Counted from the first letter of the stretch, positions 3,927-33,105 are shown. The stretch: 43,864 nt of DNA from an uncultured Gammaproteobacteria bacterium (GCA_964413645.1 CAYPSA010000008.1:1-43864), one strand, 5' to 3'. The notes: generated from the letters alone by a model not told the origin. Numbers and translations: made by a program.

Positions 3927-3973
3927 TGTCATCCTGAATTATTAATGTCATCCCGAATTTATTTCGGGATCTC
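3927..3973 (+). repeat. REP-like family A (TGTCA...GATCT): truncated plus full unit
   Basis: TGTCATCCTGAAT followed by TGTCATCCCGAATTTATTTCGGGATCTC hairpin. Confidence 0.75.
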
Positions 3974-3975
3974 AA

Positions 3976-5043
3976 TCACAACTTAAAATATTCTTCGACT
4001 TTTCTTTTAAATACGCCACTAGAAAAGTTTTTCTCTCCATACTCCTTGCCCGCAGCAGATACCCCTTGCAGAGCAAGGCTTGCAGAGTTCACTTCCGCTG
4101 TCCTGCTAATTAACTCTTCAATCGTATCATACAAAAATCCTGTTTTTCCATTTTCAATTGTTTCTTTGGGTCCACCTGAATTATGTGCAAATGTTATACA
4201 TCCAGAAATCATCGCTTCAAGCACCGACATTCCCAAATGCTCTGTTGCTTCCGGATGCTCTGTCAAGTCCGCACCCAACCCGGCAGCATGCCAATAAAAT
4301 AGGGAAGTCTTGTAATGCTGTAACCATTCTGAATATGAAGCGTTTTTTACCAAAACAATATTCTTGTTTTTCTGAGCCAATAATTTCACTTCTTCAAAAT
4401 ATTCTTCATCTTCTTTTTTTACTGACCCCACTAGTACTAATTTAAAATCCGCAAATTCTGAGTGACGTGATTGCAGAGAGTTAAACGCCTCAACTAATAA
4501 ATGCTGATTTTTTGCATGCAAATGTCTAAAAAATCTTCCGACTGAAAGAATAACTTTTTCCTTTTTTTCAATGGGGGAGTACGAATCGAAAATTGCATCT
4601 TCAATAAATGGGTGCAGAACTCCCGTCTTCTTCCCTACCCATTTGGAAATGTAACCGGCAGTGAATTCTGAATTTGCAAAAAAGTCCCACCCTCTCCACT
4701 TTACTTTATTTAATAGAGACCTCGCATAAAGTGATTTTTGTGGATACATGCAAAACACATAATTCTTTTTAGCTTTTGGAATAAAATAACTTCCATCGGT
4801 TACATAGAGCAATACATCATACCCTTCCCCTTTTCGCGCTGCTTTTTCAACGGTAAAAGAATTTACGTCGATCTTTAGTTTGTCAGAAAGATGTGAGAGG
4901 ATTGCATTATCATGCCAAAACAGTGCAACCGCGTATCCATGTTCTTCAAATACTTTTCCTATTGAAAGGATATGCTTCTCTCCTCCTCCAAAAACATCTA
5001 AATAAGGATCAACGATGAGAATTTTTTTCATGATACTTTTCAT
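3976..5043 (-). CDS. GT4 glycosyltransferase
   Basis: N-terminal DPYLDVFGGGEK; C-terminal EHLGMSVLEAMISG and HNSGGPKETI. Confidence 0.9.
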   Translation of the reverse strand: MKSIMKKILIVDPYLDVFGGGEKHILSIGKVFEEHGYAVALFWHDNAILSHLSDKLKIDVNSFTVEKAARKGEGYDVLLYVTDGSYFIPKAKKNYVFCMYPQKSLYARSLLNKVKWRGWDFFANSEFTAGYISKWVGKKTGVLHPFIEDAIFDSYSPIEKKEKVILSVGRFFRHLHAKNQHLLVEAFNSLQSRHSEFADFKLVLVGSVKKEDEEYFEEVKLLAQKNKNIVLVKNASYSEWLQHYKTSLFYWHAAGLGADLTEHPEATEHLGMSVLEAMISGCITFAHNSGGPKETIENGKTGFLYDTIEELISRTAEVNSASLALQGVSAAGKEYGEKNFSSGVFKRKVEEYFKL

Positions 5044-5869
5044 ACAAAAATAAATAGGTTATTGTTTTTGAAAATGCCTGATAAATCGATTCAATAATTC
5101 CAAGTGTTCCATCTCTATAACCTTGCCACTTGAATAAACGGCGGTATAATTCTCCTAAAAACTTTCTAAAAAATGTAGAAGTCGACACAGGCTTATACGC
5201 TTTAAATAACAGATCAGATTCAATATCTTCGTATACAATTGTTTTTGCAACCATCGTTTCCAAATTCTTGTGGAAATAATGGAGCAATGGCTCTTTGAGT
5301 AATCCCGCTTCGCCTTCAATAATAGGAGTCGAGTGAATCGCTTGTGGCCACTCTTTAAATGCGCTTTTTTTAATTAATCTTGTTTGATAATCAGTTGTTG
5401 AATTCCAACCACCATGCTGCAACCACTTTTTCCCCGCAAAAATATTTTTACGTCGAAGCTTGTAATGAGTAATGTCGCTTGCCTTGAGTGCAGTCGAAGG
5501 GTCACCCTGAGCAACACCTTTGTCATTCTGAGCGGAGCGAAGAATCTCGGACCTGTCACCCTGAGCAGAGCGAAGGGTCTCAGCTATCTCCTCCGCCAAC
5601 TTTTCTGTTATCCGTTCGTCTACATCTAATAAAAACACCCATTCTGTTTTTACTTTTTCAACTCCAAAATTTCGTGCAGGCTCTACGTAGCGTGAATAAG
5701 GAAATGAAAGTACGACAACCTTTTCTTTTTTAGCCAAAGCGACCGTTTTGTCCGTACTCTCAGTATCCACAACTAGAATCTCGTCAGATAGTAGACGCGC
5801 ACTTTTTATACATTCAACAATCTCCTCTTGCTCGTTATATGCTTGAATTAATACGGTTATTTTGTTCAT
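5009..5869 (-). CDS. GT2 glycosyltransferase (WaaE/LgtF-like) with an in-frame repeat insertion
   Basis: VVDTESTDKT, ARNFG, LDVDER, RKNIF.GKKW..HGGW..DYQTRL. Confidence 0.88.
   Translation of the reverse strand: MNKITVLIQAYNEQEEIVECIKSARLLSDEILVVDTESTDKTVALAKKEKVVVLSFPYSRYVEPARNFGVEKVKTEWVFLLDVDERITEKLAEEIAETLRSAQGDRSEILRSAQNDKGVAQGDPSTALKASDITHYKLRRKNIFAGKKWLQHGGWNSTTDYQTRLIKKSAFKEWPQAIHSTPIIEGEAGLLKEPLLHYFHKNLETMVAKTIVYEDIESDLLFKAYKPVSTSTFFRKFLGELYRRLFKWQGYRDGTLGIIESIYQAFSKTITYLFLYEKYHEKNSHR
5484..5581 (+). repeat. REP-like family A tandem cluster inserted in frame in a GT2
   Basis: TGTCATTCTGAGCGGAGCGAAGAATCTC (5521-5548), TGTCACCCTGAGCAGAGCGAAGGGTCTC (5554-5581), plus a degenerate unit. 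Confidence 0.85.
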
Positions 5870-5918
5870 ACAATCTCATTGATAATGTCGCTATCTGTTA
5901 GTATTATAATACTATTAC

Positions 5919-7463
5919 ATGAACAAAATACGAAACAAAGCGCAAATTGGCACCTTTCTTTCTATTTGTCTCATTATCTTCGGAATAATTCTAAGCGCCT
6001 GGTTTTTTCTATTTAACGACCTTGTTTTTCATACCGATGTAGCACGTGATTTCCTATTATTCGAAAACATTGTGCATGAAAAACCGTTCACATTAATTGG
6101 GCCACGTGCCGGAGGAATTCCAGGCGTCTTTCACGGTCCATTGTGGCTATATGTCAATATCCCCGCATTCATTATTGGTCAAGGAAACCCGGTCGTAGTT
6201 GGATGGGGCTGGCTCATATTTTTTATCGGAAGTATTTATGGTATGTGGTATGTTTCAAAAAAACTTTTCGGGCATGAAGTTGCTTTACTTAGTACTGTTC
6301 TTTATACTTTTGTTACGGCCGGTTTGGTAAAAGCTTCATTCAATCCATCTGGCGCTGTCTACTTGAGTCCTCTGTTTTTTTATTTTCTATACCTCTATCT
6401 TAAAGAGTCAAATAAATTTCACCTGGCACTAACATACTTTATCCTGGGTCTTATTATTCAATTTCAGATGGCATTTGGAGTTCCTATTGGACTTATTACG
6501 ACCGCAATTGTACTTTTCCACATTGTAAAGAGAAAGGAATTCATACATATATTTTTCATGAGTACCATTTTGATCCCACTTTCATCGTACATATTATTCG
6601 AATTGAAACATGACTTTTTGCAAATTCGTTCAGTATTGAATTTTCTTACCGGAGTTGAAAACGCAGGAAAAGTCCATACTACAACTTCAAAGTTTTTAAT
6701 CGACAGATTTCAAGGATTTACCCGCAGTGGCATATCATTTATAGGACATAACATACCAATCCTTATCCTTGCAACGTGGTCAACAATAATTGCTGGCTTA
6801 ATCAGTAGAAAAAAATCAACAAACGACAAGCTTATTTACTTCCTTATTATCAGTCTGTATTTGGGTTTCTGGGCATCCACACTCGTGTTTAAGGGTGTTA
6901 TTTGGAGCTACTATTACTGGCCACTTACACCGTTACTAATTATATTCATCGCCTCAACATATAAATATATTGACAAACGAATTTTCTTCGTAGCTTACGC
7001 TCTACTTCTTGGCTTCAATATTTTCAATGTTACAAAAGAAATTTACCAAGCCTCATCGTATATAGGAACCGGAAGAACTGGCGGAACGTGGCAATATTAT
7101 TACAAACCCGCACAAGATATTTTTGCATCGGCACCATCAGAATTTGGCTATTTTATTTATACGGCTGATCAATTTGGCTATTCGTCTCGCTATGCAATGA
7201 ACTACGCCCAAAAGGCAAATGAAAACAAAATTGCCAGACCTTTCCAAAAGAGTGGAAAAACATACCTTCTAACATTCCCTGCACATGACCATCCATACAC
7301 AAATGAAAAATGGTGGAAAGCAGGTCAGGTAAAAATCGACCGTAAACCAAATAAAGTATTCAAATACGATAGAAACTTTTATATTGAAGAGTACGATCTT
7401 ACAGAAGAAGAAGTTCAAGTTACTCCTGATCCAAATTTACTACACACAATTATTTTTCGCTAG
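5919..7463 (+). CDS. GT-C fold glycosyltransferase (ArnT-like, DxxRD..GP subfamily)
   Basis: FHTDVARD, TLIGP, FHGPLWLY; multi-TM. Confidence 0.75.
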   Translation: MNKIRNKAQIGTFLSICLIIFGIILSAWFFLFNDLVFHTDVARDFLLFENIVHEKPFTLIGPRAGGIPGVFHGPLWLYVNIPAFIIGQGNPVVVGWGWLIFFIGSIYGMWYVSKKLFGHEVALLSTVLYTFVTAGLVKASFNPSGAVYLSPLFFYFLYLYLKESNKFHLALTYFILGLIIQFQMAFGVPIGLITTAIVLFHIVKRKEFIHIFFMSTILIPLSSYILFELKHDFLQIRSVLNFLTGVENAGKVHTTTSKFLIDRFQGFTRSGISFIGHNIPILILATWSTIIAGLISRKKSTNDKLIYFLIISLYLGFWASTLVFKGVIWSYYYWPLTPLLIIFIASTYKYIDKRIFFVAYALLLGFNIFNVTKEIYQASSYIGTGRTGGTWQYYYKPAQDIFASAPSEFGYFIYTADQFGYSSRYAMNYAQKANENKIARPFQKSGKTYLLTFPAHDHPYTNEKWWKAGQVKIDRKPNKVFKYDRNFYIEEYDLTEEEVQVTPDPNLLHTIIFR

Positions 7464-8952
7464 TTTTCTGCCATTGTTCAATTGTGGTTTTATTGGGCAT
7501 TTCATATCGTGAAACCATTGTGAATCCTTCAGGAATATTACTCTTTCTCCATTCTTCTACTCGAAAGCTATATTCATCATGATCGATAATCATAATACAA
7601 GAATCATTCACAAAATTATCAAGAGGTACTTTATATCCGCTTAAATTACTGTAGTGAAATAAATAATTATATGTATGGGGAACAACGGGCGGCGTGTAAA
7701 TGCGCGCACAAAAATCTTCTTTTCCCACTATTGAATATACTTTCTGAGCAGTTGCAACATCAACTCGTAGACCAACTTGTGGTACCCGATTATTATTGAA
7801 TTCATAATGCACTTTTGCTCCAACTAATATCACATAAAAAATAATCATTCCCATAATAAGCCTCTTCGATTTTTCAAGATTTAGAGTATGTAGTAAAAGT
7901 AGCATTGGAAAAAATAGTAAGTACTGAATTCCTTCCAAATAATAATCCCAGAAAAAATTGTTTCGGTACATGAGTGAGAATAAAAAGATAAGGGCGATCA
8001 TACTTACAAAGAATCTAAATATTCTTTGATTAAATGAAGACAATGTTTTGAATCTACAAATCAAAAGTGAAAGCATTATCAATATCACCCCAAAAACTAA
8101 TAAGTTATTATTCTCATAAAAGATTTCCTTAAAATAACTTAAAAATAAAAGTGCCCGATCATGAGCAATCCCTCCGAAATTCTGTGTATGTGTTTTTGAC
8201 GGATTATTAAAAAATGCAATAATCCCTTTTATTTGTGAAAAATTATGTTTGATTTCAAAAAGAATTCTGAAAGTAAAAGGCAGTATAAGACCTGAAAGTA
8301 GCGCGAAGATTGAGCTTCGACTACGATACAATTTTCTCAATTCTGCAAACAATAAACTTGCTACAAAAAATGATGGAATAATAAATATTCCAAATGGCAT
8401 TTCTGACTCAAAAATTAAACTCAAAGAAAGAGCGGTTAAAAATACAAATTTGGTTTTCCCGGTTTTAAACAACTCATAGGCACTATAAATAAAGAGCAGA
8501 ACAAACGGCGGGGCTAGAATATTGTTCCCGGCAAAAATAGAGATTCCCACAAAATATGGCGATACAGCTACAACTAGCAAAAAGAGAATAGCAATATAAT
8601 TTCCAAATTCCCGCTTCAAGAAAGCTGTAAATAAAATTGTAGTAATAAGTGTCATAATCAGCACTCCCCAATAAAATCCACTTGGGCTTCCTCCAAACAC
8701 CGCATAATTACCCGCCAAAAAGTAATACCACCAGACTCCATGATTCACCCCCGCGATTCCCGTAGTTGGCCCTATGAATGTAGGGTTTTTAAATCGAACA
8801 ATTTCTTCAGCCTTTAAAAAGTCTCTCCCCTGATCATACGTATACGGTACCGTTTGATAATAGATTGGCTTTGCTCTAAAATAAACAAACAGAAGGAACA
8901 AAATTATGTACGGCAACCACACTTTCAAGCAATGAAGTTTATAATTAGTCAT
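7450..8952 (-). CDS. GT-C fold glycosyltransferase (ArnT-like, DQGRD subfamily)
   Basis: YTYDQGRD, TFIGP, HGVWWYY; multi-TM. Confidence 0.75.
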   Translation of the reverse strand: MTNYKLHCLKVWLPYIILFLLFVYFRAKPIYYQTVPYTYDQGRDFLKAEEIVRFKNPTFIGPTTGIAGVNHGVWWYYFLAGNYAVFGGSPSGFYWGVLIMTLITTILFTAFLKREFGNYIAILFLLVVAVSPYFVGISIFAGNNILAPPFVLLFIYSAYELFKTGKTKFVFLTALSLSLIFESEMPFGIFIIPSFFVASLLFAELRKLYRSRSSIFALLSGLILPFTFRILFEIKHNFSQIKGIIAFFNNPSKTHTQNFGGIAHDRALLFLSYFKEIFYENNNLLVFGVILIMLSLLICRFKTLSSFNQRIFRFFVSMIALIFLFSLMYRNNFFWDYYLEGIQYLLFFPMLLLLHTLNLEKSKRLIMGMIIFYVILVGAKVHYEFNNNRVPQVGLRVDVATAQKVYSIVGKEDFCARIYTPPVVPHTYNYLFHYSNLSGYKVPLDNFVNDSCIMIIDHDEYSFRVEEWRKSNIPEGFTMVSRYEMPNKTTIEQWQKTSEK

Positions 8953-10410
8953 GTTAGAAATAATATTGGATTATACGTTCTTATAGTCTTTTTCAGCATA
9001 CTTTTTTTCTTCCATTTCAATTATAGCACCCTTTCTTCGTGGGATGAAGCATGGTACGGAGTAATCGCGCGCGACATGCTGGCACGAGGAGATTTTTTAC
9101 GAATGCAATTTAATACGCTACCCTTCTTCGATCATCCTCCAGCAGGATTTTGGTTTATGGCACTTTCATATAAGCTCTTGGGTGTTTCTGAATTCTCCAC
9201 GCGACTTCCAAGTGTACTATTTGGAATAGGATCGATCGCTCTCACGTATCTCGTAAGCCTGCAGCTTTTTCGCAATAAAACGCAAGCATTTGTAGCAGCG
9301 CTAATTCTTGGAACATGTGTGTGGTATGTACTGAGGGTACGATCAGGAAACCTGGACTCACCATTCGTATTCTTTTATCTACTTACTATCTACACCTCAA
9401 TTAGATCAAGAGTAGATATACGATGGTTTGTACCTGCCATGATTAGTTTTGCGTTCCTTTTTATGACGAAAACGCTCGTGGGAGCATCTGCAATTGTTCT
9501 TGTCTTACTTGCAAACAGTAATCACGTTATACAAGCGCTTAAAGCGCGCAGAGTCGAAAATGCACGCATCATTTTAATGGGAGTATTGGCTGCAGCTATA
9601 ATTATTCTTCCTTGGTACATAGTTCATTGGCTTTCATATCACAATTTTATTCAACATCATTTCGTAAATATTGGAACTCGCAACAAAACAATCACGTCAT
9701 ATTTTCAACTTAATGCTACTCAACCTTTGTTCTATTTACATATGGGAATTAGAAAGTGGTACTACTTATGGATTGGCGCATTGGGAATCATTTTTATTCG
9801 AGGTGCTTTCCTAAAAAAAAGAGTCGCTTTTTTACTCTTTTGGAACGCGCTTGTTTTATATCCATTTTTAACAACAACTCAAACACAGTTATGGCATTTA
9901 ATTCCAGTCTACATTCCAGTAGCGCTCATAACTGCATACGGATGGTTCCCATACGGTATTAAGTTACCAAAAAGTGTTGTATCAAGCATGTCAAAGATTT
10001 CATTTGTTCCCCCACTCAAAATCCGTGCACTTGCGTATTTAGGAGCTTTCATGCTCGTCGCATTTCTTCAAGTCAAAACATTCAAGTCCGAAATTATTCA
10101 AGCAGATACGTATATCCCCGATGACGTTGCAATTGCAAAAGCCGCACATTCGCTTCCTCAAAAAGTATTTTTAGACGATGACTTTTTACCAATGGCATTG
10201 TATTATGCTGATAGAGTGATATACCCTATTCGAGAATTACGGCATTATGGATATAAAATCGAAGATGAAACACTCATTTCTCTATTCAAATCTAATGAAA
10301 AAGACTTTGCGGTCATTACTCGCAAATGGGCAACCGGGAATTTAGACGCAGAGAAAATTCCGTATAAAATTATTAAAGAAAACAATTCGTTTGTAATAGT
10401 AACTCGATAA
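8932..10410 (+). CDS. GT-C fold glycosyltransferase (ArnT/GT39-like); start probably 8932
   Basis: SSWDEAWY, FDHPP, EFSTRLPS. Confidence 0.82.
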   Translation: MKFIISHVRNNIGLYVLIVFFSILFFFHFNYSTLSSWDEAWYGVIARDMLARGDFLRMQFNTLPFFDHPPAGFWFMALSYKLLGVSEFSTRLPSVLFGIGSIALTYLVSLQLFRNKTQAFVAALILGTCVWYVLRVRSGNLDSPFVFFYLLTIYTSIRSRVDIRWFVPAMISFAFLFMTKTLVGASAIVLVLLANSNHVIQALKARRVENARIILMGVLAAAIIILPWYIVHWLSYHNFIQHHFVNIGTRNKTITSYFQLNATQPLFYLHMGIRKWYYLWIGALGIIFIRGAFLKKRVAFLLFWNALVLYPFLTTTQTQLWHLIPVYIPVALITAYGWFPYGIKLPKSVVSSMSKISFVPPLKIRALAYLGAFMLVAFLQVKTFKSEIIQADTYIPDDVAIAKAAHSLPQKVFLDDDFLPMALYYADRVIYPIRELRHYGYKIEDETLISLFKSNEKDFAVITRKWATGNLDAEKIPYKIIKENNSFVIVTR

Positions 10411-10411
10411 T

Positions 10412-11518: not shown

Positions 11519-11990
11519 TTCGGGCGGAGGCACCGATTACACCAACCTTTTACTTATTTTACTTCTCATTGCCACGTTTATTTACTTTGTAAGCAAGTTA
11601 ACTGTACAACCCAACAAAAATGTTGTGGGAGAAACATCAGTCAAACACGTAATTCCTACTGCCACAACACCTCGTTCTGAAGTGCTCTTTTATACAACTC
11701 AATATGGCGATACTATTGAAGCAATAGGAAAAGCATTTAAGATTTCGCAGGAAACTATTAGGAGAGTTAATGAAATTCCCGATGATGAAGAAGTTGAGTC
11801 AGGAGTCAAACTCACCATTTTGCCAGTTTCGGGCTATATGCATAAAGTAGTCGAGGCTGAAACGGTGTACACGATTGCAAGTAAATACAAAGTCGATCCT
11901 ATGAGTATTGTAAACTATCCATTTAATTCATTTAAAAATCCCAATACTTTTGAACTCGAAGTCGATCAGACACTAATTGTGCCAGAATAA
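11496..11990 (+). CDS. Membrane-anchored LysM-domain protein (two LysM)
   Basis: YTTQYGDTIEAIGKAF..I.RVN and HKVVEAETVYTIASKY; N-terminal TM. Confidence 0.85.
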   Translation: MSAHAAHDSGGGTDYTNLLLILLLIATFIYFVSKLTVQPNKNVVGETSVKHVIPTATTPRSEVLFYTTQYGDTIEAIGKAFKISQETIRRVNEIPDDEEVESGVKLTILPVSGYMHKVVEAETVYTIASKYKVDPMSIVNYPFNSFKNPNTFELEVDQTLIVPE

Positions 11991-12821
11991 ATTCTTCAGC
12001 AAATGAAGTTTAGTACGCAATGGAGCGTAAGCCAATCCGAATTTTAATCTATTTTTATCCTGATATTTAGTGTGAATACTTGAGCCTGCTCCGTCGGTAG
12101 ATTGCGCATTCTTATGCCATAGTGTTACTTGAGGAGTATACTTGAGCTGAATCCCGGCTTTCTTTGCCCTCACACACCAATCTGCATCTTCATAATATAA
12201 AAAGTACGATTCATCCCAAAATCCTACTGTATTCAAAACGCTTTTATCAAAAAACATCAAACAACCTGTTAGAAAGTCTACGTTTTTCTCTTCATTAAAT
12301 TGTCCTTCATCAACCTCATCGACTCCGATATGTGAAGTAATCACATGGTTCCAGTCAATTTTTCCTCCGGCAAACCAAAGGACATTACCCAAATCGCTTG
12401 GGGAGTATTTTTCCTTATGGTATTCAAAGCCCTTTGCATAATATATTTTCCCACCTCCAATTGTTTTTGGATTGCTGTTGAGAAATGATTGGATCGATTC
12501 GACAAAATACTCTTCAAAATACGTATCGCTATTCATTACACAGAATTTTTCAATACCGTCTTCAAGTGCTTTTTTTAAGCCAACATTTACCCCATGAGCA
12601 TAGCCTTTATTTTGTGAGTGGAGCAATTGAATCTTTGAGATTCCATCAGAATCCAGTGAAGTTTTCTTTACGAGCCCCCGGAGCTCGTAATCCGGCTCCT
12701 CCGTAAGATCTACTACATACAGCTTAAACTGTGTATTTTTCTGCTTTAGAATACTCTGCATGAAGTCTTCAAGTACCGTATAATTCTTATATACCACCGT
12801 TATGATTGCAAACTTGGCCAT
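11973..12821 (-). CDS. GT2 glycosyltransferase (WbbL-like)
   Basis: NKGYAHGVNVG, MNSD, FLTGC, YYEDADWC. Confidence 0.88.
   Translation of the reverse strand: MAKFAIITVVYKNYTVLEDFMQSILKQKNTQFKLYVVDLTEEPDYELRGLVKKTSLDSDGISKIQLLHSQNKGYAHGVNVGLKKALEDGIEKFCVMNSDTYFEEYFVESIQSFLNSNPKTIGGGKIYYAKGFEYHKEKYSPSDLGNVLWFAGGKIDWNHVITSHIGVDEVDEGQFNEEKNVDFLTGCLMFFDKSVLNTVGFWDESYFLYYEDADWCVRAKKAGIQLKYTPQVTLWHKNAQSTDGAGSSIHTKYQDKNRLKFGLAYAPLRTKLHLLKNLFWHN
12668..12690. repeat. REP-like family B copy within the GT2 coding sequence
   Basis: Identical to 1368-1390; translated as YELRGLVK. Confidence 0.85.
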
Positions 12822-17091: not shown

Positions 17092-18405
17092 ATGCCTCTA
17101 GAATCTCATCCAGTCCCACATCAATATTCCGAAGGTTATCCAGAATTCCAAAAAGGAATTTCGAAAGAAGGTATGGAGTTACTTTTGGCAGGTGCAGGAA
17201 ATAATGAGATAAAAGCTCTAATTGTATGCGTTATGGAAACGGGTATTTGGACACCTCCTGAAATTTCAAAACGACTGCATGAATTACGCGGCGAAGATTC
17301 TGAAAGATGGCCTATGGATAATTTAGTTCAAGTTCATTTAGATACTTTAGCTGGAGTTGGTTTCTTAGATAGAGAGCTTATTGATACGACAACTGGAAGG
17401 TCTAACGGATATGAGCTTACTGAATTTGGAAAAAAATATGGAATTCCATTTGCAAGCGCCATGCTTGAATTTTCATTAGCCCATCCTCACGTATCCTTGC
17501 GGGATATGCTAGGAAGTGCAGCATCAGTTGTACCAGCATATGAACGAGTAGTAGAAGGTGAGACGGTTTTAATGAAAAAAAGAGGTCCAAGCAGTAGGCT
17601 CGAAATATATCGGGCACTTCTAACTGCAACTTTACCTGTTAGTCAGGTGCAAATACATCACGACCTGAAAGCGCCTGAAGATTCGCTTATTGCTCAGCTA
17701 CAAAATCTTGGTGCCAATCATATAATTACACGAAAAACAGACGGAGTGAGGACGATGTATAGAATCAACTCAAATAAACTAAGAACTGAAAGACAGACGC
17801 CTTTAGGATTAACACAATCTGTGATCGATTTTCTTTATTTAGCGAATGGATATGCTTCAATCGATCAAATTTGCAGTGGTATATACGACGAATTTGGAGA
17901 TTATTATCAGCATGATCCAGCAAGATTACGAACAGCAGTAACGCAAACTATTCAAAGACAACTTTTACAAGGCACGGTTGAAACAGGATTACTTAACAAA
18001 AAAGATGGATTTGCACAAATTAGTCTTACGCCCCAACAGCGCGCTACTATTTATAATCTTGTATCAACAGTCTACGAATTTCAAAGTGCATCAGATCAAG
18101 ATCTTCGAGATAAAGCATATAGAGGTAAACTACTATTAGCACAACCCGTAAGTATCTCGACACTCATCGATAAGCTAAGAAGTAGTTCTTCACATGCGAA
18201 CACTCTTACCAGCGCACAAAAAGGTAGTTTCATTATAGAAGCCCTTAAACTCTTAGGTGAACCAGTTTCCACAACTCATATTCATGAGGTTGTAAGCGGC
18301 TTACTGGGGAGATCGATTTCAAATAGAGTAATTCAAGAAACACTTAAAATATTATTAGAATCAGGAACGGTAAAGACAGCACAGGGTCATTACTGGCTTG
18401 AATAG
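17092..18405 (+). CDS. Hypothetical soluble protein with about four winged-helix-like segments
   Basis: Repeated helix-turn-helix plus wing patterns; own TGA-TATAAT promoter at 17048-17056. Confidence 0.55.
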   Translation: MPLESHPVPHQYSEGYPEFQKGISKEGMELLLAGAGNNEIKALIVCVMETGIWTPPEISKRLHELRGEDSERWPMDNLVQVHLDTLAGVGFLDRELIDTTTGRSNGYELTEFGKKYGIPFASAMLEFSLAHPHVSLRDMLGSAASVVPAYERVVEGETVLMKKRGPSSRLEIYRALLTATLPVSQVQIHHDLKAPEDSLIAQLQNLGANHIITRKTDGVRTMYRINSNKLRTERQTPLGLTQSVIDFLYLANGYASIDQICSGIYDEFGDYYQHDPARLRTAVTQTIQRQLLQGTVETGLLNKKDGFAQISLTPQQRATIYNLVSTVYEFQSASDQDLRDKAYRGKLLLAQPVSISTLIDKLRSSSSHANTLTSAQKGSFIIEALKLLGEPVSTTHIHEVVSGLLGRSISNRVIQETLKILLESGTVKTAQGHYWLE

Positions 18406-18554
18406 TATCAATAAAAGTTCTCCAACTTCAAGAATTGACAATCCCAAACGCGATAAAAACTATGGGGAAGGCTCCTAACCTAATTTATTAAGCCACCTGT
18501 CTCATCTGACTGGAATGCCGGTTCTGAGCAGATCTCTCAATAGCACTTAGCTCC

Positions 18555-20237
18555 CTACTCAAAAATAAAATACGCAGTCTTAAGCGATAAATCTTTATAC
18601 ATTATTTTTCTATCTGAAGAGACAATTTTATTTAGCTGTTCATACGTCTTAAGATTCATGCATGTTTCAGATACAAGTGAGCCATACATATCTGTGAAAT
18701 CGAGTACCAGTGGACATTTCATGAATACAACGTTGTTAATTCTATATGTATCGCTTTCTTGCTCCATCATAGGAGACTTATTAGCATTATCAACAAATAT
18801 GTACGATAAATATACATTCTTAGGAGCATGATGATATACCGTTATTTGATCTTCAGGTCGACTCAGTAGGTAGTTAGAAACCACTTTCTCACTTTCATTA
18901 AACAATTCACCTACGGTCACTTGACGACGTTCATAATAGTTATATGTAAAATAAACCACATTTATTCCCACAGCCATGAAAAGTATTACATATAAAGCAT
19001 GACGAGGTTTTGGCAATAACTTTTTACTCAGCGTAATACCAAAATCTACTCCTAAAGCCAGTACATATGCATAACCCAACGCAGACAAAAATCCTCGAAT
19101 AGAATATGTCGAGCTATTGACTGACGCCATAGCGGGAAGCAGTCCTAAGAAAATAAATCCTATTAAGAAAAAATCTTTCCGGTTGAGTCGATTCCCTAGC
19201 GCCATGATACCCAAATAATAAAACAGTAAACCCACAAAGAAAAATTGTCCTCCAACTGCATTTCCATTAATTGGACTATAATCGCCTGTTTTAAATAAAT
19301 ATGAAATGTCCTGCCCTTTAACAAAGTTATCAACTACATAATCTGCCGCAACTGATATCTTATTATGGAAAGTATCCCTAATCAACAATGGAACATTCGA
19401 TGCTGCTCGACGTAGATTAACTTCAGCAGTAAATCTTTCAGGACTTAAAAAAACAACCTGTGAAAATCGTTTAGTCGTAACGGCCCTATCAATAAATGAA
19501 ATCGAAGCAAACAAGAAAACAATAAACATTACGTTAATAATATTTTTTCTAACAAACTCGACCGCATCATCCCATACTATTCTGTCATTTTGATCCTCTT
19601 TGTCATTCTGAACCGCCGGATGGCGGTGAAGAATCTCGGTGTTTCCTCTAATGAATTCCAAATACACAATCAAAAAAGGAATCACCACGCGAAAACCTTG
19701 GTAGTTATAAAATGTCAAGAAAAATAATAAATATGATACCCATCGTCTGCCTTTAAGGTAATAAAGAATTGCCGCTAGAATCGTAACTGCCGCAAGTGAT
19801 AAATCCATGGCAAGTCGAGTAACATGAAAAACCCACGGTGAAAAACAAAATATAAGTGCGGTTATGAAAGCCAATCTTTTATTATCAACAATTCTCATTA
19901 CGATCTCATATACCAAGAACGTAAGTAGTGAAGAGATTATTACAAAAGGCAGTCGAGCAAAAAAGACATTCTTTATCGGCAACACCAACCACCACAACGC
20001 AGAATAGTAAATCGACACCATTGGATTATCAGGACTAATCCCCGTGAAATTTATTGGCAAAAAGTTTCCAAATAGGTCATGTCCAGTTTTAGCAATTGAA
20101 TATCCTGACAGCACAATATCTCGTTCATCGTGCAGAAGAAATAGTTGATCTAAAAATAGTAAGCGTAATAATAAAAACACTACAGCAGCAATAAGCAGGT
20201 GCTTATGTGTGGAGATATAATCGATTATTTTTCTCAT
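18555..20237 (-). CDS. GT-C fold glycosyltransferase (ArnT-like) with a repeat insertion
   Basis: LHDERDIVLSGYSIAKTGHDLFG, similar to the motif in 1434-3071. Confidence 0.78.
   Translation of the reverse strand: MRKIIDYISTHKHLLIAAVVFLLLRLLFLDQLFLLHDERDIVLSGYSIAKTGHDLFGNFLPINFTGISPDNPMVSIYYSALWWLVLPIKNVFFARLPFVIISSLLTFLVYEIVMRIVDNKRLAFITALIFCFSPWVFHVTRLAMDLSLAAVTILAAILYYLKGRRWVSYLLFFLTFYNYQGFRVVIPFLIVYLEFIRGNTEILHRHPAVQNDKEDQNDRIVWDDAVEFVRKNIINVMFIVFLFASISFIDRAVTTKRFSQVVFLSPERFTAEVNLRRAASNVPLLIRDTFHNKISVAADYVVDNFVKGQDISYLFKTGDYSPINGNAVGGQFFFVGLLFYYLGIMALGNRLNRKDFFLIGFIFLGLLPAMASVNSSTYSIRGFLSALGYAYVLALGVDFGITLSKKLLPKPRHALYVILFMAVGINVVYFTYNYYERRQVTVGELFNESEKVVSNYLLSRPEDQITVYHHAPKNVYLSYIFVDNANKSPMMEQESDTYRINNVVFMKCPLVLDFTDMYGSLVSETCMNLKTYEQLNKIVSSDRKIMYKDLSLKTAYFIFE
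19583..19637 (+). repeat. REP-like family A (truncated plus full unit) in frame in a GT-C
   Basis: TGTCATTCTGAACCGCCGGATGGCGGTGAAGAATCTC; host peptide EILHRHPAVQNDKEDQND. Confidence 0.8.
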
Positions 20238-21187
20238 GAAATCTTACGAGTCAGACTATGTAACTTCGATTTTACAAATGAAATGTTACTCATACCTTTT
20301 TTCTTACTCCAAAAACTTATTTCATGAAGGGAATCCGAGAAAAATTGAACCGTGTCTTTAAGGATGGTCTTTTGATTCACCTCTTTTGCTCCCCCCATTT
20401 CCCATACGTAAAAGTACACCAAAAAGTAATACATCATTTGCAAGAATGCCAAAACAAATCCATGCATACCATCTTTATATCCATCATCAGCAAAGTATCG
20501 TCCAATAAATTCAGAGAGCGCTTTTTTACTAAAGTAGGTAAAGCTTGTGTCAACCTGTGCTCCTGTGTCACTCTGAGCAGAGCGAAGAGTCTCGGCCGCC
20601 TCAGCCTTTGCATACCGTGGAGCTTTTGAGAGGTATTCATCCAAATCCTTATAATTGTAATGAACGAGCGCATTTTCCTCCTTGGGGTCAATTAAGAGTT
20701 CACTTCCTTCAGCCTTAGGCTGTGCATGAATAACCGTAGGCCACACGACTGCTCCTTTCTTAAAGAATCTCACTTGATAATCAGGCCACCAACGAGAGTG
20801 TTCAATCCACTTTCCAAATATAATATTTTTACGGGGAACTTTTACATAGTCATACTTCCCAACTGAGGACTCTAGGAGAGTAGCCAGTGATGGCGGTACA
20901 ATTTCATCTGGATCAAGTACTAAAATATATTCTCCTTTTGCTTGCGCATGTAACTCTTCTCGAATTAGTTCAACATACGGAACTCGTTTTGTAATTGTTA
21001 CTATTTTTACATTCTCAATTTTTCTTAATTTCTCCAGCAATGTGGTATCGATTCCAATATCTCCAATAAGTATTTCTCTTGCTAAAGAACGGACCGATTC
21101 CAGCGTTTTTAAAATATGTTCCGGATTATTCTTCACAACGATGACTGCAGTTACGTCAACCTGGAAGGTAGCATTGGTATTATTCAT
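20234..21187 (-). CDS. GT2 glycosyltransferase (WaaE/LgtF-like)
   Basis: LDPDE, PRKNIIFGKWIEHSRWWPDYQVRFF. Confidence 0.88.
   Translation of the reverse strand: MNNTNATFQVDVTAVIVVKNNPEHILKTLESVRSLAREILIGDIGIDTTLLEKLRKIENVKIVTITKRVPYVELIREELHAQAKGEYILVLDPDEIVPPSLATLLESSVGKYDYVKVPRKNIIFGKWIEHSRWWPDYQVRFFKKGAVVWPTVIHAQPKAEGSELLIDPKEENALVHYNYKDLDEYLSKAPRYAKAEAAETLRSAQSDTGAQVDTSFTYFSKKALSEFIGRYFADDGYKDGMHGFVLAFLQMMYYFLVYFYVWEMGGAKEVNQKTILKDTVQFFSDSLHEISFWSKKKGMSNISFVKSKLHSLTRKIS
20566..20593 (+). repeat. REP-like family A copy in frame in a GT2
   Basis: TGTCACTCTGAGCAGAGCGAAGAGTCTC; host peptide ETLRSAQSDT. Confidence 0.85.
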
Positions 21188-25773: not shown

Positions 25774-25787
25774 AAATGTATTATATA

Positions 25788-27946: not shown

Positions 27947-27948
27947 AC

Positions 27949-29427
27949 TTATTCTCGAACTAATTTGTAAATTTTTACCCCTTCAACTTCCCACATTGTA
28001 TCAATTTTTGCAGTACCGAACATCGAAATGTTCCAAGAAGGAGAATTCACAACCACACAGGGCTCTTCGCCACACAATACAAACATTTGATCTGTTATTT
28101 CTAACTTTCTTCGATCAGCAGGTGGCTGTCCTCCTAAATTCAAAAAATAAACATAGTTATCTTCTGTAAAGTAAATCGGCCAGGTGGCAATATTGTATGG
28201 TTTGTTTCCTGTTTTTGTAAGCATAAACTGAGCAACGCGTTTTGCATGATTAATTTGACCATTTCCCGGTTCTACAAAAAAAGGTAATTGCAGATTCCAA
28301 TATAAATATGCTGCAAGAAGGGCTATAAGTGCTAGCTGCCCTATTCTTTTAAACCGTGCCAGAAGCGAAAGCATGTATGCTGCGACTAACGAAAAACTCA
28401 GATAAATTGGCGTGTAATAATGTGCGTGTCGGGGAGTTTGCAAAAAAGCAAAAAATAGTAAAAATGAAGCTACGGCAAGCGAATTCAAATGAATAAATCG
28501 AGGAACCTTTTGCCATCTGCTTATTACTAGATAAAGTACCAATATTGTCACACTTATGGCAAGTGCGGCACTTACGCTTACTTCATAATGAAAAACTGTA
28601 TTAACGAAAGCATTATTTACATTGAGAAACCGTGTAGAAAAAAGTTCGCGGGCAACATCTTTTTGCTCACTAAAAAGTTTTAGAAAGCTTGAACTATTTA
28701 TAAAATCATGTCGTAAGTCAAACAATATGAGTGGGCTAATTGAGGCAATGAATGAAAGTGCTGGAGCCACGATCATTGCTTTGTATGACGACAAGACCTT
28801 TCCTCGTTTCTCCCACATAAAAAGTACGTACCACACTACGATTGCAGGAGCAATTAAGACAGCCAAATAATGGAACTGCATAGAAAGGCCAAAAAAGAAT
28901 CCGAATAATGCCCCAAACAGAATTGTAGGTTTTTGCATTAGCTTATATAAAAAGAACAACGAAAAGAATGCTGAAAAGTGCAATAAATTTGGATTCCATG
29001 AAAAACGAGCAAGCTCGATCTGCACAAATGAGAAAAAGGACAAAATGGAGAATAACAAAGCCACACCCAGGCTAATTTCCCTCTTGATCACTGCGTAACT
29101 TGCCGCTATACCAAGTAATGAGTAAAACGCGACTGCGTACGCAAGTCCGACCGGATTAAATCCAAACAGGGGTAGAAATGGTGCAACTAAATAATAGTAT
29201 GCTGGACCTAAAAAAACCTGACCAATACTGGTAGGAGCTCCAATAAGTGGAAAATGGGTAAAAGTAACTATGTCTTTAATTATTAATGCATCACGACCCT
29301 GATCTGACAAAAATACCGTAAATTGTTGTAATCTAAAAAAACGCAGGAACGCACCAGTCAAAAGTAAACTCGTAAAAACCTTATTTTTTGTTACAATGGT
29401 TCTTATCGTATCTATGAAACGGCTCAT
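27949..29427 (-). CDS. GT-C fold glycosyltransferase (DQGRD subfamily)
   Basis: LSDQGRD, LIGAP, GPAYYY, RFSWNPN. Confidence 0.8.
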   Translation of the reverse strand: MSRFIDTIRTIVTKNKVFTSLLLTGAFLRFFRLQQFTVFLSDQGRDALIIKDIVTFTHFPLIGAPTSIGQVFLGPAYYYLVAPFLPLFGFNPVGLAYAVAFYSLLGIAASYAVIKREISLGVALLFSILSFFSFVQIELARFSWNPNLLHFSAFFSLFFLYKLMQKPTILFGALFGFFFGLSMQFHYLAVLIAPAIVVWYVLFMWEKRGKVLSSYKAMIVAPALSFIASISPLILFDLRHDFINSSSFLKLFSEQKDVARELFSTRFLNVNNAFVNTVFHYEVSVSAALAISVTILVLYLVISRWQKVPRFIHLNSLAVASFLLFFAFLQTPRHAHYYTPIYLSFSLVAAYMLSLLARFKRIGQLALIALLAAYLYWNLQLPFFVEPGNGQINHAKRVAQFMLTKTGNKPYNIATWPIYFTEDNYVYFLNLGGQPPADRRKLEITDQMFVLCGEEPCVVVNSPSWNISMFGTAKIDTMWEVEGVKIYKLVRE

Positions 29428-30499
29428 ATACCCTTATTTTACTCTACTCTATTTAGTTTTAGGAAGTACGCTTTTGGCGTGGGTACCATTTATGCGTAAT
29501 TTCCTTACCGTTTATGCTAATTATGACGGTCCTTTATATATTGTAGTCGCCAAAACGTTTTATAACCCGTCTGCGATTCAAAGTCTACAAGTGGGACTTA
29601 ATTTAACCGCTGAATATTTTGCGGCACATTTACCCTTGTACCCGGCATTTATCGCCCTAACAGGACCAATAATTGGCTATTTGCGAGCAATGATCTTTGT
29701 CAACGTTGCTTTTACCGTATCACTTACCTTTTTACTATATTACGTTGTTAAAGATCTAAATTTATCTAAAAAACCCCTTCTTTTAACCGGCGTTTTTTTG
29801 TTTTTACCTCGATTTCTTGTTGTCCGATCCATTGGTTCACCTGAAAGCTTGTTTATGTTGCTTATTTTAGGCTCACTGTACTTATTTGAAAAAAATAGAC
29901 TCGTTTTTTCAGGAATTCTAGGAGCCCTTGCTGTAGCAACAAAATTGCCAGGAATATTACTCTTCGTTGCGTATGGACTGGTGTATATTGAACGATACCT
30001 GAGTAATAAAGAATTTTCATGGAAGTCGCTTTACACACTTATTATTCCACTGGGACTTTTTGGAGTATTTGGAATCTATGCAGTCCAATATAACGACTTT
30101 TTAGCCTATTTTCACACGAACGCAGTCGTTCCACTCGTTTCGCCCTATGCCGTCTTTAATAATGCTGCAAAATGGGTAGGAACTATTTGGCTAGAAGACG
30201 TTATTTTTTACTTCGGAATCTATGCAGCGACAATCGTTGTTCTACGACACAGCATACATCGAAGTTTCTTCTATTTTGCTGTCACCTTCTTTATTGCCAC
30301 TATCTTCGTAGAACATCGTGATATCGCACGATACAGTCTTCCATTATGGCCCCTAGCCGCAATAGCTGGTGAAAAGATAATTACATCAAAAAAGTTTTTA
30401 CTAGCATCCCTCATCATTCTCCCAGCAGTTTACTTATACGCATGGAATTTCATTGGAAACAACGTAGCACCCATCGCAGATTGGAAAGCATTCCTATAA
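29414..30499 (+). CDS. GT-C membrane glycosyltransferase, PIG-V/mannosyltransferase-like; start probably 29414
   Basis: YDGPLYIVVAK..Y, AHLPLYP, PESLF, RYSL. Confidence 0.62.
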   Translation: MKRLIYPYFTLLYLVLGSTLLAWVPFMRNFLTVYANYDGPLYIVVAKTFYNPSAIQSLQVGLNLTAEYFAAHLPLYPAFIALTGPIIGYLRAMIFVNVAFTVSLTFLLYYVVKDLNLSKKPLLLTGVFLFLPRFLVVRSIGSPESLFMLLILGSLYLFEKNRLVFSGILGALAVATKLPGILLFVAYGLVYIERYLSNKEFSWKSLYTLIIPLGLFGVFGIYAVQYNDFLAYFHTNAVVPLVSPYAVFNNAAKWVGTIWLEDVIFYFGIYAATIVVLRHSIHRSFFYFAVTFFIATIFVEHRDIARYSLPLWPLAAIAGEKIITSKKFLLASLIILPAVYLYAWNFIGNNVAPIADWKAFL

Positions 30500-31183
30500 T
30501 TATTTAGGTTCAAAGCTCGTAAATAGCTGAATACACGCATTTCCCACACATTTTCCACAGCTATATTTAGAATTACCCATAATCGCACTTCGGTGAATTG
30601 GTGAATTCATCCACCATTGCACAGTTCCTCCATCGTCACTTCCGTATTTCATATTTTCAGTAATCCAATATGGCAAGTTTTTAGCATGTAAACCACTGTG
30701 AAAGCGTCCATTACCCACTTCAACAGGAATTTCAGGGATACGTGACTCAGCTACCGCGCAGAGCGCGTCATTTTTCTCGAAAGCAGGTAGGCCGGCCTGG
30801 GTTCGAATTGCATTTATGAGCTGCAAAATCAAATCAGGGTTGTTTTGACCATTAGCATCAAATCCTGGTGCAGTTACAGTTTCAGGTTCAACAAGGGCAA
30901 CAGGCGCCGTTGGTACTTCGGAAGTGACACCTTGTACTGCAGAAACAGGTTCAACAGGAGTATATTCTGCCCGCAAAGCATTAAATACAACATGTTCAGG
31001 TTCAGGGTCACCAACAGGAGCATAACATTTATTAGGATTTTTCGGACACAGGGAAGGCGTCGAACATGCCATTGCCGTGGGTTTCGTATCAAGATTTGCC
31101 CGTGCTATCGGTATGGTTCCCAGCATAAATGAGGCGATTGTCGCCACAAGAATGTGGAAGGTAACTTTCGTTACGAGTGTCAT
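30500..31183 (-). CDS. Exported CAP (SCP) domain protein
   Basis: LINAIRTQAGL, HSG, EN, WWMNSPIHRSAIM; signal/TM and Pro/Thr-rich linker. Confidence 0.85.
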   Translation of the reverse strand: MTLVTKVTFHILVATIASFMLGTIPIARANLDTKPTAMACSTPSLCPKNPNKCYAPVGDPEPEHVVFNALRAEYTPVEPVSAVQGVTSEVPTAPVALVEPETVTAPGFDANGQNNPDLILQLINAIRTQAGLPAFEKNDALCAVAESRIPEIPVEVGNGRFHSGLHAKNLPYWITENMKYGSDDGGTVQWWMNSPIHRSAIMGNSKYSCGKCVGNACIQLFTSFEPK

Positions 31184-31246
31184 AAAGACAAGCTGGTATT
31201 ATACCATTTTTGGGGCCTCAAGTCAAGTTACAGGGGGCAAACCGTG

Positions 31247-31318
31247 AGGCACGTGCCGGAATCGGACCGGCGCATAGAAGTTTTGCAGACTCCCGCGTTT
31301 CCACTTCGCCAACGTGCC
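31247..31318 (-). tRNA. tRNA-Cys(GCA)
   Basis: GGCACGT/ACGTGCC acceptor, anticodon arm GGAGT-CTGCAAA-ACTTC, U73; T loop TCCGATT. Confidence 0.9.
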
Positions 31319-31375
31319 GTTGCAGCGCAACATTACTCTTTTATTATACCAAGCCATGCGATATAATAGTACGGT

Positions 31376-32407
31376 ATGGACAGAATTAGCTCACTTAAAA
31401 TAAAAATCCTTTCTCATAAAAAGTTCGTCGTACTTCTCATTCTTATAGCCGCATTTGCAATCTATCGCTCACAATCTGGTACAAAACTAGAAGGAGTTTC
31501 CAATACAACGGTAAAACAAGGTACGATTAAAGAAACATTAACACTTTCGGGTACCATCGATGCCGATGAACGCACTGTTCTTTCATTTCAAACAAGCGGC
31601 ATGCTCACTTCCGTAGCGGTAAAAGAAGGTGATTTTGTTAAAAAAGGTCAATTCATTGCCTCGCTTGATCAGCGCGATCTTAAAAAACGACTTCAGAAAC
31701 AACTAAATACGTACGCAATTTCTCGAAGCACTTTCGATCAAACCAAAGCAGATTATAAGGATGTAGCCTTAAATGACGCAATTTCTCGGACACTCGACCA
31801 ATCACAATATACCCTAAACAATTCGGTTATCGATGTGGAACTAACAGACATTGCCGTAAAATACGCTAACCTATATAGTCCAATCGACGGCATCGTAACA
31901 TCGATCTCTTCTCCTATCCCTGGCGTAAACGTAACTCCGCTTACAGCACAATTCGAAATTGTTAATCCAGAATCAATTTACTTTGCATCAACCGCCGATC
32001 AAAGTGAAGTAACACAGCTTGCAGTTGGAAAAAGCGGAAAAATTACGCTTGATTCATTTTCAGACAATAGTATTAATTCATCCATCGGAGCGATTTCATT
32101 CGTACCAAAAGCAGGCGAAACTTCCACAGTATATGCAATCAAACTTCCTCTTACTGAAAATGCTAATCAAAAGTATCGCCAAGGAATGACGGGCGATGTT
32201 ATATTCACCATGCGAGAACAAAAAAATGCACTCACCATTCCTTCATATTATCTTAAGGAAGATACCGATGGTAAAAAATACGTGGATATCGTCACGAATG
32301 GAAAACGAGATAAGCGATTCGTAAAGATTGGTATTGAAGGCGATGAAACCATCGAGATTACATCTGGACTATCCAAAGGCGATAAAATTTATGATTTCAC
32401 TCAGTAA
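31376..32407 (+). CDS. MacA-like periplasmic adaptor (membrane fusion) subunit
   Basis: VAVKEGDFVKKGQFIASLD, LYSPIDGIVT, GLSKGDKI. Confidence 0.88.
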   Translation: MDRISSLKIKILSHKKFVVLLILIAAFAIYRSQSGTKLEGVSNTTVKQGTIKETLTLSGTIDADERTVLSFQTSGMLTSVAVKEGDFVKKGQFIASLDQRDLKKRLQKQLNTYAISRSTFDQTKADYKDVALNDAISRTLDQSQYTLNNSVIDVELTDIAVKYANLYSPIDGIVTSISSPIPGVNVTPLTAQFEIVNPESIYFASTADQSEVTQLAVGKSGKITLDSFSDNSINSSIGAISFVPKAGETSTVYAIKLPLTENANQKYRQGMTGDVIFTMREQKNALTIPSYYLKEDTDGKKYVDIVTNGKRDKRFVKIGIEGDETIEITSGLSKGDKIYDFTQ

Positions 32408-33056
32408 GATTTACAAGACCTACGAACTTGAAGAAGAATCCTTAACGGTCCTCAAAGACGTTTCAGTAACTATAAAAGAAGGTGAATTCGTAGCCATTCT
32501 CGGTCCATCAGGCTCAGGAAAGTCAACTCTCATGCATATTTTAGGCTTGCTTGATCACCCTACAAGTGGGAAGATAGTCGTTGATGGAGTAGATATTTCC
32601 ACGCTTAATGATGATCAAATATCGCAATTACGCAGTGAATTTGTAGGATTTGTGTTTCAACAATTTAATTTAATAAACAAATTAACTATTTTGGAAAATG
32701 TTCTACTACCCACCATTTATACTCGTAAAAAACTTAATTACGATCCTAAAGCGCGCGCAATGGAATTATTAGAACGTTTTGGAATCGGTAGTAAAGCCGA
32801 TTCGTTTCCCAACAAAATTTCTGGAGGCCAACAACAACGTGTAGCTATAGCACGTGCATTAATTATGAAACCATCTTTTATACTTGCCGATGAACCTACG
32901 GGGAACTTAGATACAAAGACAGGTGATACCATTCTCAATTTGCTACAAGAATTAAATAAGAAAGACAAAATGACCGTTATTATTGTTACGCACGAGGCCG
33001 ATGTAGCCAAACGTGCTAAGCGTCAAATTAAAGTTATTGACGGAGAAATAAAATAA
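32391..33056 (+). CDS. ABC transporter ATP-binding protein (MacB/LolD-like); start probably 32391
   Basis: [35 protein letters not shown]. Confidence 0.95.
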
Positions 33057-33059
33057 CCC

Positions 33060-33105
33060 TGTCATCCTGATCCGCTCTGTCATCCTGAGCGAGAGCGAAG
33101 GATCT
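33060..33105 (+). repeat. REP-like family A (truncated plus full unit), intergenic within the ABC operon
   Basis: TGTCATCCTGATCC followed by TGTCATCCTGAGCGAGAGCGAAGGATCT. Confidence 0.85.

Follow-up and report, generated by a model that had tools for sequence, protein, structure and literature searches.

Short DNA hairpins with an unpaired 5′ tag are described from bacteria in several forms, of which the closest to the repeats considered here are: (i) the CGTC-tagged repetitive extragenic palindromes (REPs), in which the tag is often TGTC, with CCTC also admitted, the stem opens with an A-T pair and the tail is short (3 nt) (Di Nocera, De Gregorio and Rocco 2013, PMC3733652), and (ii) NTS (CGTCATTCCCGCG..GCGGGAATCYRG), an oriented subset, and the Ssn-related motifs (SRM), related hairpins which together with NTS flank ssnA (Chenal et al. 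2025, PMC11893778). The CGTC-tagged family takes in Neisseria dRS3 and the intragenic elements RPE-4 and RPE-6 of Rickettsia conorii; head-out dimers predominate, head-tail dimers are 'negligible' and no transposase is known, while intragenic dimers or groups encode 20-30 aa or more, and most REPs lie just 3′ of open reading frames (ORFs) and may act as RNA (PMC3733652). SsnA is a single-domain GIY-YIG nuclease of ~94 aa, which binds the hairpin on one strand of single-stranded DNA (ssDNA) only and cuts just upstream (PMC11893778). The window analysed here, i.e., the whole 43,864-nt stretch of CAYPSA010000008.1 (GCA_964413645.1, deposited as an uncultured Gammaproteobacteria bacterium), carries hairpin repeats at five loci (A to E), three of them in frame inside genes, and a possible sixth. 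These loci quite probably represent an oriented DNA hairpin repeat of the CGTC/TGTC-tagged REP superfamily (NTS and SRM), the spread of which would depend on an Ssn-type nuclease, with half copies as scars and encoded peptides as passengers.

Hairpin repeats of the window and their class

A first-pass annotation of the window had reported REP-like elements at five loci, a report that motif counts and a common predicted fold bear out, and to which a sixth, degenerate copy is added. At a base composition of 38% G+C, TGTCAYYC has 8 matches in the window (3.9 expected, both strands), all inside the five loci and 8/8 on the + strand; TGTCA-N(1-12)-CTGAGC has 4 matches (versus 0.06 expected), and GAAGRRTCT has 8 (versus 1.2 expected), 5 of which lie inside loci. 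The motif as originally worded, TGTCA-N-CTGAGC with a single N, has 0 matches in the window, the true spacer being 2 nt (YY), and the CTGAGC..GCGAAG interior occurs only in the full copies of loci D and E and in two copies of locus B (B2 and B3). The interior of locus A is CCCGAA-TTTA-TTCGGG, with GGGATCT at the 3′ end in place of GAAGRRTCT, and that of locus C is CTGAAC-CGCCGGATGGCG-GTGAAG with a CCGCC/GGCGG inner stem.

Read on the + strand, a full unit is composed of TGTCA, a 5-nt arm, GA, a variable inner stem-loop, GA, the complementary arm and then TCTC; the 5′ tag, (T)GTC, is unpaired, the stem starts with A-T and TCTC forms the 3′ tail. The same fold is predicted for all six full copies (5-bp stem, GA/AG internal loop and variable inner stem-loop), with four forms of the outer stem (ATTCT/AGAAT, ACCCT/AGGGT, ACTCT/AGAGT and ATCCT/AGGAT). 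The repeat is a hairpin, and its stem covaries: among 152 copies of the 25-nt core GTCAYYCTGAGCNNAGCGAAGRRTC, from the window and from 120 genome loci of a scan over one genome per species (596 Gb; L001-L120), the two variable stem pairs (YY/RR) were complementary (Watson-Crick) in 147, versus 60 if independent. Full units are 28-37 bp and clusters 46-110 bp in length. RPE-1 of Rickettsia is larger (~100-150 bp), and is compared with these units by size and placement. A half copy (17-24 nt; TGTCAYYCTGA plus a few bases) stands 5′ of the full unit at 5/5 loci, such that the truncated-plus-full layout, initially noted at three loci, extends to all of them.

Membership of the CGTC superfamily is indicated by tag, tail and dispersed copies. 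All full and half copies begin with TGTC, except one GGTC; the first stem pair is always A-T and the second T-A or C-G; and the repeat is dispersed, with six loci in 44 kb of the window and ~11 in 40 kb of a sister genome (contigs with 87-91% identical orthologues, syntenic at 83-90% nucleotide identity, ~40 kb covered). Shared with the CGTC REPs are the unpaired tag, the A-T stem opening, the short tail, the placement of copies right after ORFs, the presence of some units in frame in ORFs and, in core copies of other genomes, the predominance of head-out inverted dimers. Locus A (8-bp stem, 4-nt loop) fits the CGTC-1 geometry. By contrast, in most window copies a stem of 5 bp is followed by a GA/AG 2x2 internal loop and by an inner stem of 2-6 bp, versus an uninterrupted stem of 8-9 bp with a loop of 4-5 nt in CGTC REPs; the 3′ tail is CTC or CTG at all copies, versus the published consensus CCA; the direct half-plus-full layout is dominant in the window, whereas head-tail dimers are negligible in the described family; and the host belongs to the Candidate Phyla Radiation (CPR; Microgenomates), a group outside that survey.

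The window repeats resemble NTS/SRM in the GTCA tag that orients the hairpin, in wide phylogenetic spread and in a core that, in other genomes, flanks small GIY-YIG genes on one or both sides; the one-strand specificity of the NTS/SRM system could, in addition, explain the strand bias of the core. Unlike NTS, of which 2% are intragenic in Neisseria meningitidis (PMC11893778), 3/5 window loci are intragenic, and no ssn gene is visible in the 44-kb contig. In-frame insertion, half copies and replication-strand bias lie outside the discussion of PMC11893778. The Rickettsia analogy drawn in the first-pass annotation proves closer than thought, as RPE-4 and RPE-6 belong to the same CGTC-tagged superfamily (PMC3733652). 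RPE-1 and other in-frame insertions likened to miniature inverted-repeat transposable elements (PMC3184786, PMC10969869) share with the window repeats a palindrome inserted in frame in loops of functional proteins, within a small gene-dense genome. Thus, the window elements are placed as an interrupted-stem subfamily of the known class in a CPR (Microgenomates) host, where they behave like Rickettsia RPE-4/-6. Literature searches by repeat-encoded peptide words or DNA strings returned nothing relevant.

Locus A combines a half copy (TGTCATCCTGAATTATTAA, 3927-3945, +) with a full hairpin, TGTC-ATCCCGAA-TTTA-TTCGGGAT-CTC (3946-3975, +), and occupies the spacer between the stop codon of a GT1 gene (3976-5043) and the likely ATG of a GT2 gene (3091-~3930). 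Locus B (5474-5581) holds in total one degenerate full copy, one half copy and two full copies, namely B1 (..CCTTGAGTGCAGTCGAAGGGTC, 5474-5503, +), which is kept in the sister genome, a half copy (GGTCACCCTGAGCAACACCTT, 5497-5520, +) that overlaps the 3′ arm of B1, B2 (TGTCATTCTGAGCGGAGCGAAGAATCTC, 5521-5548, +), with the antisense reading EILRSAQND, and the 33-nt unit B3 (GGACC + TGTCACCCTGAGCAGAGCGAAGGGTCTC, 5549-5581, +), which reads ETLRSAQGDRS. At locus C, a half copy (TGTCATTTTGATCCTCT, 19584-19600, +) precedes a full copy with a long inner stem (TGTCATTCTGAACCGCCGGATGGCGGTGAAGAATCTC, 19601-19637, +) that reads EILHRHPAVQND. Locus D is formed by a half copy (TGTCAACCTGTGCTCC, 20550-20565, +), which the sister genome lacks, and a full copy (TGTCACTCTGAGCAGAGCGAAGAGTCTC, 20566-20593, +) that reads ETLRSAQSD. 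Locus E, likewise a half copy (TGTCATCCTGATCCGCTC, 33060-33077, +) and a full copy (TGTCATCCTGAGCGAGAGCGAAGGATCT, 33078-33105, +), is intergenic between genes for an ABC ATPase (32328-33056) and a MacB/FtsX permease (33125-34333). The possible sixth copy (TGTCTC-ATCTG..CAGAT-CTCTC, 18498-18538, +) is degenerate and lies just 3′ of the stop codon of the gene for the GT-C-like protein (18555-20237). A relaxed scan (TGTC, 5-nt arm, complementary arm, TCT/CTC) gives further matches at 5967, 15685 and 36918, all on the + strand, which may be chance matches or very decayed relatives.

That loci A and E and the 18498 copy directly follow stop codons, as most REPs lie just 3′ of ORFs with a possible role as RNA (PMC3733652), would agree with hairpins that are mainly regulatory (terminators, mRNA stabilisers or translational pauses) and for which spread is secondary. 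Such a role is distinctly unlikely for the repeat as a whole, as no T-tract follows the hairpins, the mRNA of minus-strand genes carries the weaker C/U-mismatch complement, and flanking genes are randomly oriented to the repeat in the broad sample (100 same and 96 opposite among 196 flanks). Rfam 15 at gathering score detects six tRNAs only and has no match for the hairpins in the window, and an RNA role leaves both the cross-phylum sequence identity and the GIY-YIG link unexplained. The three post-stop copies may have a regulatory role as RNA, which would leave the rest unexplained. Two tRNA-Ser(TGA) genes lie near opposite ends of the contig in opposite orientation (77-150, -, 39 bits; 43718-43805, +, 60 bits).

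In-frame segments in host genes

The three intragenic loci are all in minus-strand genes: B in GT2a (5009-5869, PF00535), C in a gene for a GT-C-like membrane protein with no Pfam match (18555-20237), and D in GT2b (20234-21187, PF00535). Reading frames are open through every intragenic copy, and the extra segments encoded by the repeats amount to 10-36 aa in glycosyltransferase loops, with peptides that include ETLRSAQGDR, SEILRSAQNDK and EILHRHPAVQNDK. The in-frame location at three loci and the peptides first quoted for them are correct, and GT2b does carry its own copy at a site other than that of GT2a, the two being paralogues of 31% identity.

That these copies add new segments, as had been claimed, is borne out by alignment with orthologues, in which the three sites hold 7-10 aa when free of the repeat, versus 20-38 aa in the window genes. 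The inserts are lineage-specific. In GT2a, orthologues from Microgenomates (Roizmanbacteria, Woesebacteria) are 249-300 aa in length, and the variation is confined to one site, between 'ELAxEI' and 'THYKxPRKNIF', with ~9 aa in the shortest orthologues versus ~38 aa in the window gene; close orthologues differ by whole repeat units, and distant ones have peptides of sister repeat types (SEAKQSQ..ARNDK, PSLSELREG) at the identical site. The GT2b site holds 9-10 aa in orthologues of 50-62% identity, the insert is missing even from a homologue of 73% identity (P0129), and close relatives carry other hairpin peptides there. Of 16 sequences of the GT-C-like protein, two (from the window and its sister genome) have the ~22-aa insert, and the 14 orthologues without it are of 35-47% identity.

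Predicted structures cover the inserts of GT2a and GT2b. The GT2a model (mean pLDDT 86.9; nearest solved folds GT-A enzymes such as SunS, TarS/TarP and WrtF) places the insert, residues ~97-133, between a helix (89-103) and a strand (133-144), with pLDDT 47-61 at residues ~101-130. In the GT2b model (mean pLDDT 88.3), the insert (~ residues 197-215) prolongs the helix 182-205 and makes the next loop, the insert block having pLDDT 75. The segments of both are modelled as low-confidence loops between structural elements of otherwise confident folds.

The peptides are dictated by the DNA. In the main antisense frame, GAG-AYY-CTN ... CAG-RRT-GAC gives E-I/T-L ... Q-x-D, a hydrophilic peptide, the conserved residues of which are the translated flanks GAGAYYCT ... 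CAGRRTGAC. Two of the six frames of the repeat contain TGA, and the main observed frame is the most hydrophilic; thus, stop codons and hydrophobicity account for the choice of frame. All intragenic copies of the window and the sister genome (100%) are antisense to the host gene.

Turnover between sister genomes and the status of the peptides

Repeat units are gained and lost between the sister genomes, and interiors are swapped while flanks are kept. Both genomes have a repeat at loci A, C and D, with aligned flanks and wholly different interiors, and the comparison at DNA level shows that B3 (33 nt) is missing from the sister genome. The ~11 repeat loci of the sister genome, ~10/11 of which have the orientation seen in the window, include copies without a counterpart in the window: GT2c carries one (KEITEILRGVYPESNRRTQNDKGTQNDKSD), a PMT_2 gene carries one in another antisense frame (..SGLRMT), and a GT1 has one at its C-terminus, where the repeat provides 'DGDPSLRSG' and the stop codon. 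When target-site duplication was considered, which together with terminal inverted repeats marks miniature inverted-repeat transposable elements, B3 was found to be flanked by TCTC on both sides, which is also the element's own tail, and the other empty-site comparisons gave none. These patterns would fit a site that, once occupied, stays a hot spot where units come and go and the hairpin interior is exchanged while the flanks remain.

Further differences are observed at or near hairpins. At the window junction 25785/25788, where the window runs on without interruption, the sister genome has an insertion of ~2 kb (L124 3463-5444). Two TGTCA hairpins (L124 5347 and 5432) mark one border of this insertion, and it carries two small ORFs (144 and 141 aa), both membrane-like and with no Pfam match. 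Conversely, a 437-aa ORF of the window (17092-18405, +, no Pfam match) has no counterpart at the syntenic position of the sister genome, where a three-hairpin cluster, one hairpin in opposite orientation, lies at the breakpoint (L121 340-470). At the GT2c site, the window (12640-12690) has a tag-less small palindrome, TACGAGC-CCCCGGA-GCTCGTA, and the sister genome a half-plus-full TGTCA element; the palindrome may represent a copy that has decayed or been replaced.

The tandem units and half copies could, in principle, be assembly artefacts of an abundant metagenome repeat, as the 28-nt core has word depths up to thousands and the Logan contigs of the source run break exactly there. This explanation is extremely improbable: a 25.8-kb contig of the source-type run X1 covers 5519-5800 without differences and spans both B2 and B3, a 5.5-kb contig covers 5300-5545, the intragenic frames are open, and independent sister-genome assemblies from other samples carry the identical sites. 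Metagenome contigs on locus B, searched for population variants, piled up at the repeat or broke there and showed nothing else. Wastewater or sludge samples hold this Microgenomates lineage, and in metagenomes of this kind (runs X1, X3, X4 and X13) the 28-nt core (window 5519-5549) recruits contigs at such depths, which makes it a likely cause of fragmented assemblies in these samples.

The first-pass annotation saw in the inserts a diversification of surface-glycan enzymes, a purpose that the gene content of the window does not support. About 24 consecutive glycan genes (1434-29427), which encode PMT_2 and PTPS_related GT-C proteins, GT2s, a GT1 and a flippase, make up ~64% of the window; glycosyltransferase hosts are thus expected by position alone. 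Were the inserts functional modules selected to diversify glycosyltransferase specificity or surface glycans, this would agree with the variety of repeat-derived peptides at the GT2a site of many Microgenomates orthologues, and with hydrophilic peptides that are nearly always in one reading frame. The proposal is nonetheless quite improbable, as the inserts lie in low-confidence loops away from conserved columns, the DNA hairpin dictates the peptide content, interiors are freely swapped between sister genomes, other frames are in use (SGLRMT in PMT2, DPSLRSG-stop at the GT1 end) and the preference for one frame is explained by stop codons and hydrophobicity. Adaptive diversification of the glycan enzymes is, therefore, possible but unsupported, and the peptides are more plausibly tolerated passengers than selected features.

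Distribution, strand bias and a candidate nuclease

The 25-nt core is not specific to the genome of the window. It occurs in at least 120 genome stretches and at least 120 viral or proviral stretches of IMG/VR (L127-L246), compared to a chance expectation of ~0.3 per 596 Gb (own arithmetic), and the groups that bear it include Nitrospirae, Chloroflexi, Acidobacteria, Bacteroidetes, Saccharibacteria, Gracilibacteria, Omnitrophota, Planctomycetes, Verrucomicrobia, Clostridia and Proteobacteria, among others. In this broad sample, 139/149 copies are intergenic; the frequent intragenic location is thus a trait of the gene-dense lineage of the window. The layout is polar: half copies of the 5′ arm lie ≤50 nt upstream of 20/290 cores (most at 18-24 nt) versus downstream of 1/290, and an inverted partner lies downstream of 51 of the 290 cores and upstream of 6.

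A replication-linked strand bias is supported. The first-pass annotation had found TGTCA on the + strand at all loci regardless of the strand of the host gene and had raised a replication-strand bias; the placement on the + strand stands, whereas its independence of host-gene strand is weak, as all genes that host a copy, and the two that flank locus A, are on the minus strand and only locus E lies between plus-strand genes. A relation to GC skew is present both in the window, where the + strand has negative skew in 20/21 2-kb bins and all copies are on this C-rich strand, and across the 187 other loci, where the GTCA strand is the locally C-rich strand in 58/85 genome loci (p = 0.001) and 69/102 viral loci (p = 0.0007), i.e., 127/187 in total. 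The bias is modest but replicated. It would be consistent with copies being disfavoured when the cleavable strand is the lagging-strand template, which fits the reported strand-specific cutting of ssDNA.

The one protein family recurrent near the core is a small GIY-YIG nuclease. Among the 120 core stretches listed, only three GIY-YIG ORFs (PF01541, 93-105 aa) are detected, and 3/3 lie within ~100 nt of a core copy (L114 3060-3600; L096 4060-4540; L029 5747-6598), one of them flanked by the core on both sides. The best 120 homologues of one such ORF (P0391-P0510) are 92-113 aa, many on very short contigs, and their named sources include Dehalococcoidia, Nitrospirae and the CPR group Parcubacteria. 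In 28 of these best 120 homologues, the last seven residues, D[SP]SL[RC]S[EG], are encoded by the repeat in antisense, the TGA of which serves as the stop codon. Searches of NCBIfam and of PDB sequences with a GIY-YIG ORF gave nothing useful. All-against-all clustering of ORFs in the 120 stretches listed revealed no other protein family recurrent near copies, the top clusters being GAF/SpoIIE, SDR, hydrolases, MetRS and MFS, with no transposase.

These neighbours bear on the HUH-type mobiliser to which the repeats were first linked, i.e., a tyrosine transposase (RAYT, IS200/IS605-like) acting on a classical REP or REPIN. The window repeats share with the GTAG REPs/REPINs that have RAYT the short hairpins, inverted doublets and a proposed ssDNA mechanism; an inverted partner is present at 18% of cores in other phyla, as in REPINs, and the orientation of the hairpins to one strand, together with the strand bias, might reflect ssDNA chemistry at the replication fork. 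Mobilisation of this kind is very improbable, however, as the tag is GTCA and not the GTAG that defines RAYT-associated REPs (PMC3733652), no transposase is found for CGTC REPs (PMC3733652) and no Y1-transposase-like family recurs near the 149 copies of the 120 stretches listed, the recurrent families being housekeeping. The only specific neighbour is a single-domain GIY-YIG protein, as for Ssn and SRM (PMC11893778), rather than an HUH Y1 enzyme, and the window copies, unlike GTAG REPs, are not confined to extragenic space.

The assignment to the CGTC/TGTC-tagged class with an Ssn-type nuclease also meets points that weigh against it. The published SRM string, HGTCWYN(0-2)YYVSBRHN(0-5)WNVSBRGN(0-2)RNCYNB, has 0 matches in the window and recovers 0/6 copies; the SRM architecture (20-50-nt hairpin, oriented GTCA upstream, ..TC downstream) is nevertheless present, a scan for it gives 7 true matches, and surveys that use the published string probably undercount the interrupted-stem subfamily. 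Profile searches for GIY-YIG genes find none in the window, none in the ~40 kb covered of the sister genome and none in 1.05 Mb of core-bearing viral loci (120 loci listed), such that for the genome of the window the nuclease link is by association only. The GIY-YIG ORFs near the core are assigned by PF01541, and their kinship to N. meningitidis SsnA (cd10448) is putative. NTS-ssnA-NTS resembles an insertion sequence, the mobility of which is raised as a hypothesis (PMC11893778), and for the class as a whole mobility is likewise hypothetical. The strand evidence of the window itself is limited to 5-6 loci (p ~0.03-0.06) and is confounded by intragenic copies that are all in minus-strand genes.

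With these points considered, the spread, turnover and rewriting of the repeat are proposed to depend on an Ssn-type GIY-YIG nuclease, the gene of which would lie elsewhere in the genome. The 5′ half copies would be scars of cutting 5′ of a resident hairpin. In this gene-dense Microgenomates genome, copies survive in minimal intergenic spacers or inside genes, antisense to the host. A more specific proposal, which is tentative and on balance unlikely, is that the hairpins are rewritten in place rather than moved as classical cut-or-copy transposons. A hairpin already in place would be nicked immediately 5′ by an Ssn-type enzyme, on the strand that the fork exposes, and repair by template switching to another copy would yield a new interior and a polar 5′ half-copy scar, and selection would favour the GTCA strand on the leading-strand template. 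If this is true, a homing-like process would continually rewrite short peptide cassettes in CPR proteins.

The window extends the CGTC/TGTC-tagged REPs (NTS/SRM) to CPR bacteria; in a genome in which intergenic space is near-absent, the repeats persist largely as in-frame protein segments, in parallel to Rickettsia. Half-copy polarity, interior swapping at fixed sites and strand bias are absent from the earlier descriptions (PMC3733652, PMC11893778), and bear on how the repeats spread and on the role of Ssn nucleases in vivo. The automated protein annotations and family alignments of CPR bacteria will hold many repeat-derived inserts of the EILRSAQNDK type, which are footprints of a DNA repeat and not protein motifs.

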